Shown: positions 2,994 to 8,288, numbered from the stretch's first letter. The stretch: 8,288 nt of DNA from a virus (IMGVR_UViG_2654587570_000010:1-8288); one strand, 5' to 3'. Program-made: numbers and translations. Notes: generated by a model from the letters alone, not told the origin.

Positions 2994-3069
2994 TGGCTCC
3001 TCTGACTGGACTCGAACCAGTGACATACGGATTAACAGTCCGCCGTTCTACCGACTGAACTACAGAGGA
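2994..3069 (-). tRNA. asnT: tRNA-Asn (anticodon GUU), 76 nt with encoded CCA
   Basis: The reverse complement is UCCUCUGUAGUUCAGUCGGUAGAACGGCGGACUGUUAAUCCGUAUGUCACUGGUUCGAGUCCAGUCAGAGGAGCCA, with anticodon loop CUGUUAA. The asnT name is by position between yeeJ and mtfA. Confidence 0.95.
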
Positions 3070-3169: not shown

Positions 3170-3967
3170 TTAATGAACATTCGTCGCCGAAAACGAGTCT
3201 GTATCATTAGTGCGATGCAGTCTCTGCAAAGGATCTTGTTGATAAAATTGGCAGAAACGTTGCCACAATGAAGGGAAACGAGGAGCAAAAAGTTCTGGGG
3301 CGCTAAAGAAATATTCAGAAAGTACGGCAAAACATTCAGCAGGATCACTGGCAGCATAAGCATCAATGCTCGCCGCATTCTCGCCAACTAATTCGATTTC
3401 TTCCTGAATGTTGTTCATTGCAGCATGAAGATCGTGTTCCCAGCCAGCAACCTCACGCAACGGAATAAAGGGAACTCCGCTGGCGCGATCGCCGTTACGG
3501 GTGTCCAGCTTATGAGCGACTTCATGAATAATCAGGTTAAAACCAGAAGCATCAAAAGAATCTTGTATATCCAACCAGTTCAAAACGATAGGCCCTTGCT
3601 GCCAGCTCTGACCTGACTGAACAATACGTTGGTTATGCACCAGACCGATATCGTCTTCCCATTCATCATCGACCACAAATGGCGCAGGATAAATTAAGAC
3701 TTCATGAAAACCATCCAGCCATTCCAGTCCTAACTCCAGAACGGGTAGGCAAAATAGAAGTGCTATCCGGCAGCTTCTTAATGAATCCAGTTCAAAGCCC
3801 TGTAAAGGAACAAGCCGCTTTTGCTGTAAAAAACGTTCGGCAAGAGTGACTAATTTGCTTTGTTCCTGTTCCGTCAGACACGTTAAAAGGGGGATCGATA
3901 GTGCTTCCTGCCAGGGAAGGGCAGTTTGATGTGCTGATTCTTGTACTTTCCAGGGCCACTTAATCAT
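3170..3967 (-). CDS. mtfA: MtfA (Mlc titration factor A), zinc-dependent peptidase, 265 aa
   Basis: The translation [28 protein letters not shown]...HEVAHKLD... contains an HExxH metallopeptidase motif and matches the remembered E. coli MtfA (YeeI) in sequence and length. The start is taken at the ATG at 3965-3967 rather than the upstream GTG used by the ORF track. Confidence 0.92.
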
Positions 3968-4060
3968 CGTTTTGCTCGCAAACTCGTCACTTGAACAAAA
4001 TTGCACGGACAGGGACTGTTAAAATGCCAAATTTCCTGGCATCATGGCAACCATCTGAAC

Positions 4061-4150
4061 GGAGAGATGCCGGAGCGGCTGAACGGACCGGTCTCGAAAA
4101 CCGGAGTGGGGGCAACTCCACCGGGGGTTCAAATCCCCCTCTCTCCGCCA
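4061..4150 (+). tRNA. serU: tRNA-Ser (anticodon CGA), 90 nt, long variable arm, encoded CCA
   Basis: The sequence GGAGAGAUGCCGGAGCGGCUGAACGGACCGGUCUCGAAAACCGG...GGGGGUUCAAAUCCCCCUCUCUCCGCCA has anticodon loop CUCGAAA and a class II variable arm. It is divergent from mtfA, as in the remembered K-12 order. Confidence 0.95.
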
Positions 4151-4195
4151 AAATTCAATCACTTACACATCATTAAGTCAGTGACAAAAATCACA

Positions 4196-4232
4196 CTTGG
4201 AATTACTTGGAATATTTTCTTGGAATATTTTC
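4196..4232. repeat. Three tandem direct repeats CTTGGAAT(T/A) (4196-4205, 4206-4219, 4220-4232), candidate integrase arm-type (P') binding sites in attL
   Basis: Repeats are directly visible: cttggaatta / cttggaatattttc / ttggaatattttc. They overlap the last codons of int (..PENIPRKYSK*) and lie between the tRNA 3' end and int, where P'1-P'3 sit in lambda attL. Function is inferred. Confidence 0.35.
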
Positions 4233-5228
4233 AGGTAACGGGATATTAAGTGTTGGTGAAACTTTAACCTTCCTGTCATAGATTAGCACTTGCCCTTCGG
4301 TTTTGTGACCAGAGAAAAGTTGCTTATCCCGGCTACTTCCTTCATAGTCTGAAATTCCTTTCGCCTTCAGATCATGAAAGGTGAAGTCGGTTAAAATACC
4401 TGAAATTTTTCCAGCACGATTTCTTGCTTCTACCCACATTTCGTTAAAGCCTTTGTACATATATCGGTTGCCGTATTGGTTGCTGATTACATAGGCGGAT
4501 GTTGGTAACTGTTTTGCTTTTTCGATCGCCGCCTGTAATCGTGGACTCCATGCTTTTATCTGTTTTTTCCCTGTTTTCCCTTGCTGGATAAAGATCCCGT
4601 CGTTTCCAATCTGCTCCCATTTCAGCGATAACACATCGGAAATCCTCGCTGCACACAGATAGGCAATTTCCATTGCGATGAAAACAGGAAGAGGTGCAAC
4701 GCTTAATACTGCCTGGTATTCTTTGTCGGTTACATATCGTTCGCGGTTTTTGGCCTTGAATTTACTTACACCTGCACATGGGTTAGCCTTCACGTACCCT
4801 CGCTCATACCCCCAACTGTAAACACGGGACATACTGCTTTTTTCATGGTTGGCTTGCGTTTTACTCTGCTCCCCTCTTTTGTCCATGTATCGACGGATGT
4901 GTTCTGGTTTTATGGAATCTGCCGGCACCTTACCGAATACGGCAAGCAACTTTTTTTGATGTTGCAGATAATCTTTTTGTGTTCTTGGGCTCAACTCACT
5001 GTAACAGGCGCTGGCGAGGAATTTTTCCCACAAGCGACCAAATGTCATTGCACGATCGCGGTTATTTACAGTTTCCTCATACTTTTTCCATAACGCGGCT
5101 AAACCATCTTTGATGGCGGTTAGTGTTACAGATTCTCTGGATGTTGGTTTCCATACATAACTATATTTATTTGGGTATACATTTGGAGGTAATCTTTCGT
5201 GTTCAGGGTTTTTCCTTCGTCTTCCCAT
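4203..5228 (-). CDS. int: Tyrosine site-specific recombinase, lambda-family phage integrase (341 aa)
   Basis: The N-terminus MGRRRKNPEHERLPPNVY resembles the lambda Int arm-binding N-terminal domain (MGRRRSHERRDLPPNLY, from memory). Length is typical, and the gene sits directly next to a tRNA 3' end. The ATG is at 5226-5228. Confidence 0.9.
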   Translation of the reverse strand: MGRRRKNPEHERLPPNVYPNKYSYVWKPTSRESVTLTAIKDGLAALWKKYEETVNNRDRAMTFGRLWEKFLASACYSELSPRTQKDYLQHQKKLLAVFGKVPADSIKPEHIRRYMDKRGEQSKTQANHEKSSMSRVYSWGYERGYVKANPCAGVSKFKAKNRERYVTDKEYQAVLSVAPLPVFIAMEIAYLCAARISDVLSLKWEQIGNDGIFIQQGKTGKKQIKAWSPRLQAAIEKAKQLPTSAYVISNQYGNRYMYKGFNEMWVEARNRAGKISGILTDFTFHDLKAKGISDYEGSSRDKQLFSGHKTEGQVLIYDRKVKVSPTLNIPLPENIPRKYSK

Positions 5229-5437
5229 CAGATCGCACCAAAATTCGGCTCTACCTCGCGTGGTGGTAAAGTTTTATTGCAGGTAAATAGATCCCGGCTG
5301 ACAATCGGTTTGCCACTGCGATTGGTATAGAACGGAAGCCCATTTTCTATTAACCATTTTCGCTGGTGGCTTGCATATTTGCAGCCCGTTAATATTAGCA
5401 ATTCATCTTCGGTTAAAAATAAGCTGCTCATAGCCAT
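5228..5437 (-). CDS. Small excisionase-like / DUF4224-like protein (69 aa), translationally coupled to int
   Basis: Its TGA stop overlaps the int ATG (minus-strand cTGATGg). The motif LTEDELLILTGCKYASHQRKWLIENGLPFYTNRSGKPIV resembles small winged-helix proteins found upstream of phage integrases. Assignment is by pattern and position only. Confidence 0.55.
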   Translation of the reverse strand: MAMSSLFLTEDELLILTGCKYASHQRKWLIENGLPFYTNRSGKPIVSRDLFTCNKTLPPREVEPNFGAI

Positions 5438-5489
5438 ATCTCATAACCGCCGCTAACTATATGCGGTTAGCGGCGATCAGGGTTGAACA

Positions 5490-7970
5490 TTAAAAATCAG
5501 CCTGATCCGGGATCATTTTTTGTATGGTGGCTGTAACGTATTTTGCCTGGTGGAGAGCGTCATCCAGTGCATTATGGCGTACGCCTTCGAATGGAATAGC
5601 TGTCTTGGCATCAAAGTCGATGGTTTTTCCCAGTTCGACGATTGTGCGCACGTCGCGATCGTTGCAGTAATGCCACGGGCAGGTGATCCCCTGCCGTTCA
5701 TATGAACGGCGTAAAATTGTGTTGTCGAAAGTTGCGCCATTGCCCCATACCTGCACGAATTTCTCATCTGAATGTTCGCTGATGAATTCCCGGAACCGTA
5801 AAAGGGCATCCTTCAGTTTTACCTGGTCTACCAAGATTGCAGATCTCGCCTCACTGGACTGCGCCAGCCACCATTCAATGGTGGAACCATCCGGAACAGC
5901 ACCTGTGGTCATTGCGTCAGCTAGGCTGATAACGATATAAAACGTTGGCCCGATTTCCCCTGTCTGCGGATCGAAAAACACAGCACCAATAACCACTATG
6001 GGCGCGTTGGTGTTAGTTCCCATCGTCTCGAGGTCGAGCATCAGGTGGTACCACATTCTGCTGGCGGATGTGGCTTTGTGATGATCGTTCGCCTTAATTA
6101 AGGTATTTGTCGTCTCGCCAGTTTCACCATCGCTATCGTGATAGTGATCATTGCCAGCGTCCTCCTTGTGATGATGTTCAGAGTCTTCCATTTCTTCCGG
6201 ATCTTTTTCCTGAGATTCGACCTGATTTTTTTCATTGAATGTTTCCTGGTATGTTGCGTCGCCCATCACCGCGCCACAATCAGGGCAGTTGCCGCCACCG
6301 CTCTGACCGCAGGTGGTGCAGATCTTTTCCTGTTCTTGTTGCGCTACTGGTTCAGGCTGTTTCGTTTCTGGCTCGTTTTGTAACGCATTTGGGCTGTTTT
6401 GTTCCGCTTTCTGGTCGTTCTGTTCCGTTTCTTGCTGGTTCTGGTTCACAGAATCGCGGGTTTCAATCCCCTTCACCCATTTCGGATCATTCGGGTCGCT
6501 AATCCCTGCAACAAATTCACCACGTGATACTGCAAGCAGTTCATCGGCGTCAGGCTGGCTGATATTGGCTGCCTGCATAATTTTGTTTACTTCGTCAGCG
6601 GTAACTTTTACCGGCCCTGGTTGTGCGGTCGTGTCAGATGCACCAGTATTTTGTTGTGAACCTGAGTATGTACCGTTTTTGCGGGCGAAATATTCTTCTT
6701 TCGTGATTTCAGTAGCCCCGGCAGCCAGTGCCTTATCCAGACCAGAAAGTTTGTTTGCGCGACCGTATTTTTTGCCACCCTTGTCGGTGAAGAGGAAGTA
6801 GAACGGCCCCTCACGCTCTACAGATGGTTCGACTTCCACTTTGCATTCGGTTTTTTCGTTGTCCTGAATTGCCGTTTCCACTGCATCAGTTTCTGGTACT
6901 GGCGACGAGAGAGTATCAGTTGCGCTCTGATTTCTTCCTTCATCTTCAAACACGCCCTTTGTAGTCAGGTATTCAGTAATGTATTTGTTCAGTGCCACAG
7001 GGTCTTTGTGAATGTCGATCGGACGTTCACGGACAAGGCCAAAAATAGTCTGGCGGTCGTAGCGAAGGGCATCAGGCTGTTTGCGCATTGATGCCGAGAT
7101 ACGCTTCCAGTCTTCGCGGTCGTTGTCGATAACTTCATTTTTTGCCCAGCGATGGATGCTGCCGTCAATGTTTCCGGCATCCACATCACCAGGCCAGAGA
7201 GCGTAGGCCAGTTCGTCATCCAGTGTTTTCCATGTCTGCTTGTATTCGCGATGAATGGCAGCAATGACCGGGCTGATTTTTCCTGTTGAATTTTCAGTGT
7301 GCTGTTGATTGGCTCTGGCGCGGGCGAGATCAACAACAGACGTGTATTTTCCGGTTTCCTTGCGTTCACCTTCGCGACGTTTTTTCCAGATGCGCATCTT
7401 TGCCTGAATTTCGGGCCATTTGGCACCAGGCTTACATTTATGCTTAACCCACCCGATGGCATGCAGCTTAAGCTCCGGATACATGGCGTTAACTTCTGGC
7501 ATTTTCATCAACGCTTCAACGATATGTCCGTCGAATGTTGCCATGTCTTCCTGCAACAGTTCCTGCGCGCTAATCACCATATCAACGGTGATGTTTTCAC
7601 ATGTGTCGAACTTAACCATGACAGCGTTCTGTACTTCAGGGGCCAGCTTGTCAAAAGTGACGTTCATAGGATCTGATTCAGTCTCAACCGGGACAAAGGA
7701 AGCAGACTCCTCATCCCAGCGGTTTTCCTGCATAAATTCAGCATCCCAGGAATCGAGGGCAGGGCGGGGTATACCGGGTTTATCCTCGCAAACAAGAAAT
7801 TTATAAGCGCAGTCCTGAGCAGCCGGATAATGTTCCAGGAATTGCCAGTGAAATTTTGCGCGGGCGCGACGTTCATCACCGGCTTCAATGGCTGTGGCTA
7901 CAGGTTTAGCGCCTTCTTGTTTTATTGCCTGTTCGTCCGGAATGGCAGCGCAAATAAAGACTTTACTCAT
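5490..7970 (-). CDS. Prophage exonuclease (826 aa): RecE-like central region with C4 zinc ribbon, fused to a C-terminal DnaQ-like DEDDh 3'-5' exonuclease domain
   Basis: ATG at 7968-7970 with a GAGGT Shine-Dalgarno about 9 nt upstream. Residues about 476-620 (ADELLAVSRGEFVAGISDPNDPKWVKGIETRD...CTTCGQSGGGNCPDCGAVMGDATYQETF...) resemble the central region of Rac RecE as I remember it. Residues about 639-826 carry DEDDh motifs: LDLETMG, WGNGATFD, HNALDDA. Confidence 0.8.
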   Translation of the reverse strand: MSKVFICAAIPDEQAIKQEGAKPVATAIEAGDERRARAKFHWQFLEHYPAAQDCAYKFLVCEDKPGIPRPALDSWDAEFMQENRWDEESASFVPVETESDPMNVTFDKLAPEVQNAVMVKFDTCENITVDMVISAQELLQEDMATFDGHIVEALMKMPEVNAMYPELKLHAIGWVKHKCKPGAKWPEIQAKMRIWKKRREGERKETGKYTSVVDLARARANQQHTENSTGKISPVIAAIHREYKQTWKTLDDELAYALWPGDVDAGNIDGSIHRWAKNEVIDNDREDWKRISASMRKQPDALRYDRQTIFGLVRERPIDIHKDPVALNKYITEYLTTKGVFEDEGRNQSATDTLSSPVPETDAVETAIQDNEKTECKVEVEPSVEREGPFYFLFTDKGGKKYGRANKLSGLDKALAAGATEITKEEYFARKNGTYSGSQQNTGASDTTAQPGPVKVTADEVNKIMQAANISQPDADELLAVSRGEFVAGISDPNDPKWVKGIETRDSVNQNQQETEQNDQKAEQNSPNALQNEPETKQPEPVAQQEQEKICTTCGQSGGGNCPDCGAVMGDATYQETFNEKNQVESQEKDPEEMEDSEHHHKEDAGNDHYHDSDGETGETTNTLIKANDHHKATSASRMWYHLMLDLETMGTNTNAPIVVIGAVFFDPQTGEIGPTFYIVISLADAMTTGAVPDGSTIEWWLAQSSEARSAILVDQVKLKDALLRFREFISEHSDEKFVQVWGNGATFDNTILRRSYERQGITCPWHYCNDRDVRTIVELGKTIDFDAKTAIPFEGVRHNALDDALHQAKYVTATIQKMIPDQADF

Positions 7971-8063
7971 TTTGTTTTAACCTCATGACAGATTTAAGGG
8001 TGAACAAATCCCTGCCATTGCTGGCATATAAGAATGAAATCGGATGTTTATTACGGAACTGTT

Positions 8064-8255
8064 TTAAAGACCTGCCGGGATTTCGTTATTATCCTGGTGA
8101 ATAACTTTATCGACCGGGTAACAGTTACCGGGAATTTTCTGTTCGGTTGCTGCAGTCACACACTCCTGCATTGTCCTGTGAACACTGATTGCAATATCAA
8201 CTGGCTCTCCGGAAACAAGAAAAACTGTCAGAACAAGTGCAAATGCTGTATTCAT
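8064..8255 (-). CDS. Small hypothetical prophage protein with hydrophobic N-terminus (63 aa from MNTAF; the ORF track starts 3 codons earlier at 8264)
   Basis: Open frame with N-terminal hydrophobic stretch MNTAFALVLTVFLVSG, possibly a signal peptide or membrane anchor. AAGGA lies about 8 nt upstream of the second ATG (8253-8255), which favours that start. It is co-oriented upstream of the exonuclease gene. Confidence 0.45.
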   Translation of the reverse strand: MNTAFALVLTVFLVSGEPVDIAISVHRTMQECVTAATEQKIPGNCYPVDKVIHQDNNEIPAGL

Positions 8256-8288
8256 TGCCAGCATCCTTTTTGTATCGGACGTAAACGG

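Follow-up and report, generated by a model that had tools for sequence, protein, structure and literature searches.

The window analysed here is a stretch of 8288 nt of viral DNA (IMGVR_UViG_2654587570_000010:1-8288) that is 100% identical to part of the chromosome of Escherichia coli O55:H7 DEC5B, which was used to read beyond position 8288. It contains the left end of a lambda-like prophage (Qin/Sp type), inserted at a tRNA-Ser gene. An 826-residue protein, encoded on the minus strand at 5490-7970, carries a predicted DEDDh 3'-to-5' exonuclease domain on a non-catalytic YdfE/RecE-type scaffold. No annealase gene accompanies it, either in this prophage or beside relatives with the same catalytic domain. 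The prophage, as analysed here, falls into a described class of Chi-rich lambdoid phages that have no recombination (Rec) module and rely on host RecBCD, and this membership explains the missing annealase better than the loss of a partner gene. On balance we favour an explanation in which the annealase is unneeded in such a phage and the DEDDh nuclease would trim 3' ends alongside RecBCD and RecA.

Domain architecture of the 826-residue protein

From the N to the C terminus, the protein consists of a YdfE-type N-terminal domain (residues 1-257; 7200-7970), a middle scaffold (residues 258-460; 6591-7199), an acidic, glutamine-rich linker resembling that of RecE (residues 461-636; 6063-6590), and a DEDDh (DnaQ-like, Rv2179c/DexA-type) exonuclease domain (residues 637-826; 5493-6062), all encoded on the minus strand.

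The C-terminal domain matches the Pfam family Rv2179c-like (PF16473) with 228.6 bits against a cut-off of 27 (E 5e-68). The match spans residues 642-814 and profile positions 2-175 of 177. The five DEDDh catalytic residues are all present in the Exo I, II, and III motifs: D646 and E648 (DLET), D749 (FDNT), and H799 and D804 (HNALDD). The domain also matches a 227-residue exodeoxyribonuclease in the PDB (8kel, E 1.5e-8) and, by tblastn, T4-type dexA genes with 28.6% identity. It shares 60% identity with gp34 of phage LLS and 57%, over the whole domain, with gp34 of Salmonella phage epsilon34, which belongs to the same Pfam family. T4 DexA and Mycobacterium tuberculosis Rv2179c are members of the same DEDDh superfamily with the same catalytic motifs. 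Unlike the window protein, both are single-domain proteins from unrelated genomic contexts, and Rv2179c is described as RNA-specific.

The AlphaFold2 model has a predicted local distance difference test (pLDDT) score below 50 over residues 640-826, where the alignment is shallow and holds close E. coli homologues only, and Foldseek finds no match for this region. Because of the shallow alignment, the model cannot be used as a test of the nuclease fold. The sequence matches to 8kel support an RNase H-like fold. The head is, judged by these matches, a DEDDh exonuclease of predicted 3'-to-5' polarity, located where RecE of the Rac prophage has a PD-(D/E)XK 5'-to-3' head.

The N-terminal domain is modelled with a pLDDT of about 85. 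Residues 1-256 are 96% identical to the product of ydfE, an IS2-truncated pseudogene in the Qin prophage of E. coli K-12, and by sequence the 826-residue protein represents K-12 YdfE in intact form. Two newer Pfam models, YdfE_N (PF27430) and YdfE_C (PF27432), are precomputed for cluster representatives that are 85-91% identical to the window protein; the Pfam copy used for direct scans predates them. The middle scaffold is homologous to residues 278 to about 440 of RecE. It contains a small, confidently modelled beta/alpha domain at about residues 385-435 with an invariant GPFY...GRANK motif in the alignments, and pLDDT values of 80-90 extend over residues 245-345 and 385-435. The linker, with low pLDDT, bears a CxxC-x7-CxxC zinc-ribbon motif. 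A Foldseek search of the full-protein model against the PDB returned nothing with E below 1, leaving the scaffold without a solved relative.

The relationship to Rac RecE (exonuclease VIII) is confined to the non-catalytic part. By BLASTP, residues 262-625 align with RecE residues 278-591 (E 1e-56), with residues of about 470-620, including the zinc-ribbon motif, best conserved. The alignment stops just before the Pfam PD-(D/E)XK region of RecE (DUF3799), which starts at RecE residue 615. Unlike Rac RecE, the window protein has no match to DUF3799, and a phmmer search with the RecE C terminus gave no match to the window protein or its close relatives. The NCBIfam RecE equivalog NF007259 scores 269 bits against a cut-off of 1269, with matches at model positions 438-602 only. 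The N-terminal PF06630 domain of RecE is not found either; a YdfE-type N-terminal domain of 257 residues takes its place, although sister proteins share PF06630 with RecE.

Identity as RecE, or exodeoxyribonuclease VIII, was considered and rejected, since the protein has no PD-(D/E)XK head, falls below the equivalog cut-off, and has no recT downstream. It does occupy the same early-left slot as RecE, a few genes before xis and int. Of the two components of a Red/RecET recombinase, neither the 5'-to-3' PD-(D/E)XK exonuclease nor an annealase gene is present. The database labels "exonuclease VIII" and "exodeoxyribonuclease VIII" are misleading here and give no basis for inferring a RecET-type system or a capacity for recombineering.

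The gene is under purifying selection. The ratio of nonsynonymous to synonymous substitution rates (dN/dS) is 0.12-0.17 in the nuclease domain and 0.11-0.25 in the N-terminal domain, and is relaxed to 0.5-0.8 in the acidic linker. Measured against the same homologue, dS rises from 0.02-0.2 in the N-terminal half to 1.1-1.5 in the DEDDh domain. This roughly ten-fold difference within one gene pair indicates a recombinational mosaic assembled at domain boundaries. Full-length copies form thousands of clusters at 90% identity, and annotated copies occur in thousands of genomes; sequences of 85% identity or more saturated the initial homologue search. The gene is also present in the genomes deposited for phages Tritos, Evi, and mEp460_ev081. 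A literature search returned no paper on the function of ydfE, or on that of Rv2179c-like or DnaQ-like nucleases of lambdoid phages.

No annealase gene in the prophage or its close relatives

The 3' part of the tRNA-Ser gene (4089 to about 4168) recurs 47 kb away (locus L005, 26076-26155), at the junction with a second prophage in tandem, and this repeat bounds the element. A first scan for annealases by tblastn with four references, Rac RecT among the queries, missed a Pfam-confirmed RecT gene beside the Pantoea protein P0382. Given this insensitivity to a divergent RecT, the scan was repeated with phmmer, adding a Pantoea-type RecT and HK620 Sak4 to Rac RecT, lambda Bet, P22 Erf, and a Rad52-like protein; Gam, Abc2, lambda Exo, and SSB were also taken in. 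None of these references has a match in the whole 47-kb prophage, in 80 close IMG/VR relatives and five Escherichia/Shigella genome loci, or in the complete genomes of phages LLS, mEp460, and Tritos. The annotation of the whole element likewise contains no RecT, Bet, Erf, Sak4, Gam, Abc2, or SSB. Genome contigs were scanned by exact-pattern seeding, which reaches close relatives only, and gave six loci, four labelled Escherichia/Shigella and two from metagenome bins.

The gene order is kept among the relatives. Of the 80 IMG/VR loci, 78 have ydfD and 77 have dicB placed directly upstream of the exonuclease gene. Phages Evi, vB_EcoS-813R8, and Tritos share the order dicB, ydfD, exonuclease, xis, int, except that Kil stands in for dicB in Evi and ydfD is absent there. 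Beyond position 8288, DEC5B continues with dicB, the DicF RNA (Rfam, 76.7 bits), ydfC, a 42-residue open reading frame (ORF), and ydfA, followed by the repressor. The exonuclease gene is separated from the repressor by only about 2.2 kb, in which same-strand ORFs are all at most 97 residues long; on this ground, an annealase hidden in a small ORF was rejected. The absence of an annealase is systematic and not a matter of chance.

The initial annotation of the window had placed the stop of the exonuclease gene at 5490, 52 bp from an xis-like gene, with a 63-residue hydrophobic ORF upstream. These coordinates and sizes are correct, and the small ORF (8064-8255) belongs to the DUF1482 (YdfD) family. 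The gene following the exonuclease is the DUF4224 xis-like gene, with no annealase between the exonuclease and xis/int, as had been noted. The view that the 826-residue protein is not one half of a classical exonuclease/annealase pair also stands, since no annealase occurs here or beside relatives with the same head; neither an annealase beyond position 8288 nor a regular pairing in homologues was found. The reasoning behind that view does not hold. It started from an exonuclease of the Rac or lambda type that had lost its partner, whereas the catalytic domain is of the DEDDh 3'-to-5' type and only the non-catalytic middle is RecE-like.

Nuclease head and partner gene covary

A search with the N-terminal 640 residues found only 241 relatives among 1.84 billion representative proteins. 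Among 50 long relatives, seven carry a DEDDh head, 12 a RecE-type PD-(D/E)XK head, and 31 neither. The YdfE_N and PF06630 N-termini each occur with both nuclease heads; a RecE-type N-terminus is joined to a DEDDh head in the tandem prophage of DEC5B and in phage 813R8. The protein of the tandem prophage has 805 residues, with a PF06630-like N-terminus.

The identity of the head goes together with the neighbouring gene. A PD-(D/E)XK head with recT directly downstream is found in Rac, in Pantoea P0382, and in locus L101 from a metagenome bin labelled Proteobacteria. P0382 consists of YdfE_N, YdfE_C, and the PD-(D/E)XK head, and the RecT gene overlaps its stop codon. The L101 protein (8001-12010) is 79% identical to the window protein over residues 1-540 and then continues into a PD-(D/E)XK head and RecT; from its sequence, the locus suggests that nuclease head and partner gene were exchanged together as a natural cassette. 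The DEDDh head has no annealase in any of about 85 loci examined. Head and partner gene thus covary. The lack of an annealase beside the DEDDh head fits the chemistry, since 3' tails, the substrate of annealases, cannot arise from 3'-to-5' degradation. No description of head-swapping on the RecE/YdfE scaffold, or of its covariation with recT, was found in the literature. The swaps amount to a natural experiment that could make the function of the N-terminal 600 residues of RecE testable.

Several relatives carry other C-terminal parts. One type, represented by P0135 (about 780 residues; Enterobacter hormaechei, locus L092, 7001-9370), has some 100 relatives annotated "exodeoxyribonuclease VIII" in prophages of Enterobacter, Klebsiella, Citrobacter, Pantoea, and Kosakonia. 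These proteins contain YdfE_N and YdfE_C and no nuclease domain. Their C-terminal domain of about 200 residues bears the motif KKSLTDAIKKALSxLGF; in the AlphaFold2 model, the block-averaged pLDDT is about 60-87 across residues 520-690. In a Foldseek search against the PDB, the only significant match of this domain is the N-terminal domain of human Rad52 (1h2i_A, E 9e-6, probability 1.00; target-normalised TM-score 0.50 over 176 columns). A sub-threshold match to Pfam Rad52_Rad22 (E 0.008) falls on the same motif. A profile search of this tail against the PDB was empty, and hhalign gave no significant match to a single Rad52-like sequence. Judged mainly from the model, P0135-type proteins look like the scaffold fused to a Rad52-like annealase domain. 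The gene downstream of P0135 encodes a Sipho_Gp157 family protein. Zheng et al. (2025) reported "RecE-2" proteins that lack a nuclease domain and whose role is unknown (PMC12315714); the P0135 type probably corresponds to these.

Among the remaining relatives, the P0125 type (5-6 representatives) joins the scaffold to a further tail of about 250 residues, and P0352 joins it to a ParB-like helix-turn-helix domain (PF17762). P0205 is an apparent fusion of the RecE N-terminus to RecT and may be a read-through artefact.

A Chi-rich prophage without a Rec module

The prophage contains 11 Chi sites in the active orientation (top strand) and two in the inactive orientation (bottom strand), counted with a Python script that reproduces the published figure of 20/3 for phage LLS. 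All lie in the 20 kb from int to the lysis genes; the head and tail genes have none. One of the 11 falls within the window, at 5362-5369 on the plus strand; the positions set beside it are 28771 in LLS, 26021 in mEp460, and 27079 in Tritos. A first-order Markov model predicts 1.8 sites in the prophage and a third-order model 6.4 +/- 2.7. Phages with a homologue of the DEDDh nuclease have similarly skewed counts of active and inactive sites: 20/3 in LLS, 16/4 in mEp460, and 9/2 in Tritos. In 46 related loci, the densities are 0.33 active and 0.11 inactive sites per kb. The examined early regions of lambda, P22, HK620, epsilon34, and the Pantoea RecE-RecT loci contain no Chi site.

This pattern corresponds to a class of lambdoid phages described by Zheng, Casjens, Davidson, Amundsen, and Smith (2025), defined by at least eight active and at most six inactive Chi sites and no Rec module (PMC12315714). 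In that study, 22% of a lambdoid phage panel had no Rec module, active-orientation Chi sites were abundant and clustered towards the right end of the map, and the type phage, LLS, grew better with RecBCD. According to the same paper, which cites Bobay et al. (2013) on this point, 134 of 275 lambdoid phages and prophages were without an annealase. The authors also noted sporadic DnaQ-type nuclease genes near int and did not count them as Rec-module genes (PMC12315714).

The window prophage, with its 11/2 Chi count, has no annealase, anti-RecBCD protein, or SSB in the early-left operon, and by this comparison belongs to the class. Like the members of the class, it has its Chi sites clustered between int and the lysis genes. 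In LLS, gp34, annotated as a "DnaQ-like exonuclease", is encoded immediately before xis and int, in the same slot as the window gene, and the homologues in mEp460 and phiNP are placed likewise. With about 190 residues, LLS gp34 consists of the domain alone, whereas the window domain is fused to a 636-residue YdfE/RecE scaffold. The early-left operon of LLS contains yfdP, yfdQ, and yfdR in place of the dicB, DicF, and ydf genes of the window prophage. The benefit of RecBCD is one that was shown for LLS itself.

The missing annealase is better explained by membership of this Rec-module-less, RecBCD-using class than by loss of a partner. An annealase-free arrangement is already known in kind and ordinary, and taken alone it matters little, annealase-free lambdoid prophages being common. 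The head-swapping pattern, for its part, raises the question whether the DnaQ-like nuclease plays a part when LLS-type phages grow with the help of RecBCD.

A possible role of the nuclease beside RecBCD and RecA

The early-left operon is complete and short, running through ydfA, ydfB, ydfC, DicF, dicB, ydfD, the exonuclease gene, xis, and int with no recombination module. Within it, a YdfE/RecE-type non-catalytic scaffold and a DnaQ-like DEDDh head are combined in one modular protein. Two reasons may account for the lack of an annealase in such an operon. First, the nuclease would remove, rather than make, the 3' single-stranded tails onto which annealases load. Second, the phage belongs to the class that dispenses with a Rec module of its own and carries many correctly oriented Chi sites instead, leaving host RecBCD and RecA to perform the recombination needed for replication and packaging.

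The scaffold could deliver the DEDDh head to the same place as the nuclease of RecE. There, the enzyme might shorten 3' tails to the point at which RecBCD can load or reload on a sufficiently blunt DNA end. RecBCD loading requires host 3'-to-5' single-strand exonucleases that restore blunt ends (PMC5592934), and a phage-encoded enzyme of this polarity could, by the same requirement, promote RecBCD entry at tailed ends of phage DNA. Alternatively, its action on 3' ends could limit or suppress events of the RecA/RecFOR type that depend on 3' tails. The trimming step, our best inference for the biochemical role, is the weak part of the proposal.

Several observations weigh against this role. Rv2179c, the founding member of the Pfam family, is known as an exoribonuclease, which makes RNA a possible substrate. 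Phages with a Rec module can carry DnaQ-type nucleases too; one example is gp34 of epsilon34, which has no scaffold and is encoded among SSB, a Rad52-like annealase (gp36), and Abc2. According to Zheng et al. (PMC12315714), such genes often accompany canonical Rec modules. The domain is, on this account, not specific to a RecBCD-dependent lifestyle. The same paper states that 3'-to-5' exonucleases usually inhibit recombination (PMC12315714). The AlphaFold2 model of the catalytic domain is of low confidence. The enrichment of Chi in the prophage is only about 2.4 standard deviations above the third-order Markov expectation, and the prophage looks partly decayed, with IS2 and several pseudogenes, so that some of the Chi sites may have arisen by drift towards the composition of the host.

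A broader idea, which we offer tentatively and rate as rather doubtful, is that the YdfE/RecE N-terminal scaffold is a general delivery platform with interchangeable heads for DNA ends, those seen here being the PD-(D/E)XK nuclease with recT, the fused Rad52-like annealase, the ParB-like helix-turn-helix domain, and the DEDDh nuclease. The DEDDh version would then be no leftover but would serve Chi-rich phages as their dedicated "Rec module", blunting phage DNA ends so that host RecBCD can load on them.

Alternative explanations

Four other accounts of the protein were considered; none gained positive support.

The enzyme could be a scavenging or processing nuclease resembling DexA, which degrades host oligonucleotides or the 3' ends of RNA during lytic growth for nucleotide supply or host shut-off and has no link to recombination. 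The similarity of the domain to T4-type dexA and to the exodeoxyribonuclease 8kel is compatible with such a role, as are the naming of its Pfam family after an exoribonuclease and the presence of a deoxyribonucleoside 5'-monophosphate phosphatase gene in the same operon in LLS and mEp460. The scaffold, however, is otherwise attached to heads that act in recombination, namely the RecE nuclease with RecT, the Rad52-like domain, and in one case an apparent RecT fusion, and even the stand-alone domain of epsilon34 sits inside a Rec module. Nor are temperate lambdoid phages known to degrade the host genome as T4 does. We regard this account as unlikely.

The initial annotation had raised anti-defence or superinfection control as possible roles; the protein might, for example, destroy nucleic-acid immune signals, retron DNA, or the ends of incoming phage DNA. 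Lambdoid early-left operons often hold accessory genes, and dicB, DicF, and ydfD act on the host according to annotation. The protein matches no PADLOC model, and no functional literature linking it to such a role was found, so these roles are without support. DEDD exonucleases require a free 3' end, so cyclic signals would be poor substrates. The scaffold is common to recombination proteins and the gene fills the slot that recE-recT has in relatives, and an anti-defence function seems to us quite improbable.

It is more improbable still that another resident prophage provides an annealase partner in trans, or that an unrecognised protein of this operon acts as one. Genomes of the O55:H7/O157 type harbour many lambdoid prophages, the query matched five places in the DEC5B record, a second prophage lies next door, and sequence searches can miss annealases, as the tblastn scan did. 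Against this, the phmmer scan with added references was empty in 85 loci and three complete phage genomes, the remaining ORFs of the operon, at most 97 residues long, are shorter than the annealase references of 205-354 residues, the tandem prophage is equally annealase-free in layout, and 3'-to-5' polarity cannot generate the annealase substrate.

That the gene is a decaying, functionless recE remnant in a defective prophage, as the pseudogene state of K-12 ydfE and the pseudogenes and IS2 insertion of the DEC5B prophage might suggest, is hardly credible given an intact frame of 826 codons, a full set of catalytic residues, the low dN/dS of both terminal domains, and the abundance of full-length copies in databases and in the Tritos, Evi, and mEp460_ev081 genomes.

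Neighbouring genes and the tandem prophage

The attachment site (attL) of the prophage is the tRNA-Ser(CGA) gene at 4061-4150 on the plus strand (ARAGORN, Rfam). It adjoins the gene of a 341-residue tyrosine integrase (4203-5228, minus strand) with Pfam Phage_integrase, Phage_int_M, and SAM-like domains. RefSeq flags the integrase (window 4178-5228) as frameshifted. The integrase of the tandem prophage, which bears no such flag, is equal in length and about 95% identical, and the window integrase keeps its C-terminal GH...LIYDR motif; an error of annotation may be behind the flag.

The excisionase-like DUF4224 gene (5228-5437, minus strand; 67-69 residues) is supported by Pfam (E 4e-15) and by PHROG excisionase families (E 1e-21). 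The 52-bp spacer between the stop codon of the exonuclease gene and the start codon of the xis-like gene (5438-5489) is free of genes in the ORF list. On the other side of the exonuclease gene, the YdfD-like DUF1482 gene (8064-8255 or 8064-8264; minus strand, 63 residues) is supported by Pfam (E 6e-25) and RefSeq annotation. Upstream of it lies the 3' end of dicB (8252-8288, minus strand), cut by the end of the window; in the RefSeq annotation of the identical DEC5B sequence, the gene occupies positions 24153-24341 of locus L001, corresponding to window positions 8252-8440. The order matches dicB-ydfD-ydfE-intQ of E. coli K-12, in which ydfD is annotated as a lysis protein. A promoter and terminator scan of 5100-8288 gave no signal above chance, and an Rfam scan of the window gave two tRNAs and nothing else.

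The host flank, outside the prophage, contains the 3' portion (77-2494) of an Ig-like/invasin-type gene that is very large (7983 bp in DEC5B), a tRNA-Asn gene (2994-3069), and mtfA (3170-4006). Farther into the prophage, several genes of the nin/lysis region are frameshifted or partial, and IS2 lies beside the tail-fibre genes (L001, 28631-38241, and L005, 21370-22598). The DEC5B prophage is probably defective despite its intact exonuclease gene.

The second prophage lies in tandem at the duplicated tRNA-Ser site (L005, 26190-30360; DEC5B chromosome 2111189-2115359). Its layout is identical to that of the window: int, DUF4224, exonuclease, DUF1482, and dicB.

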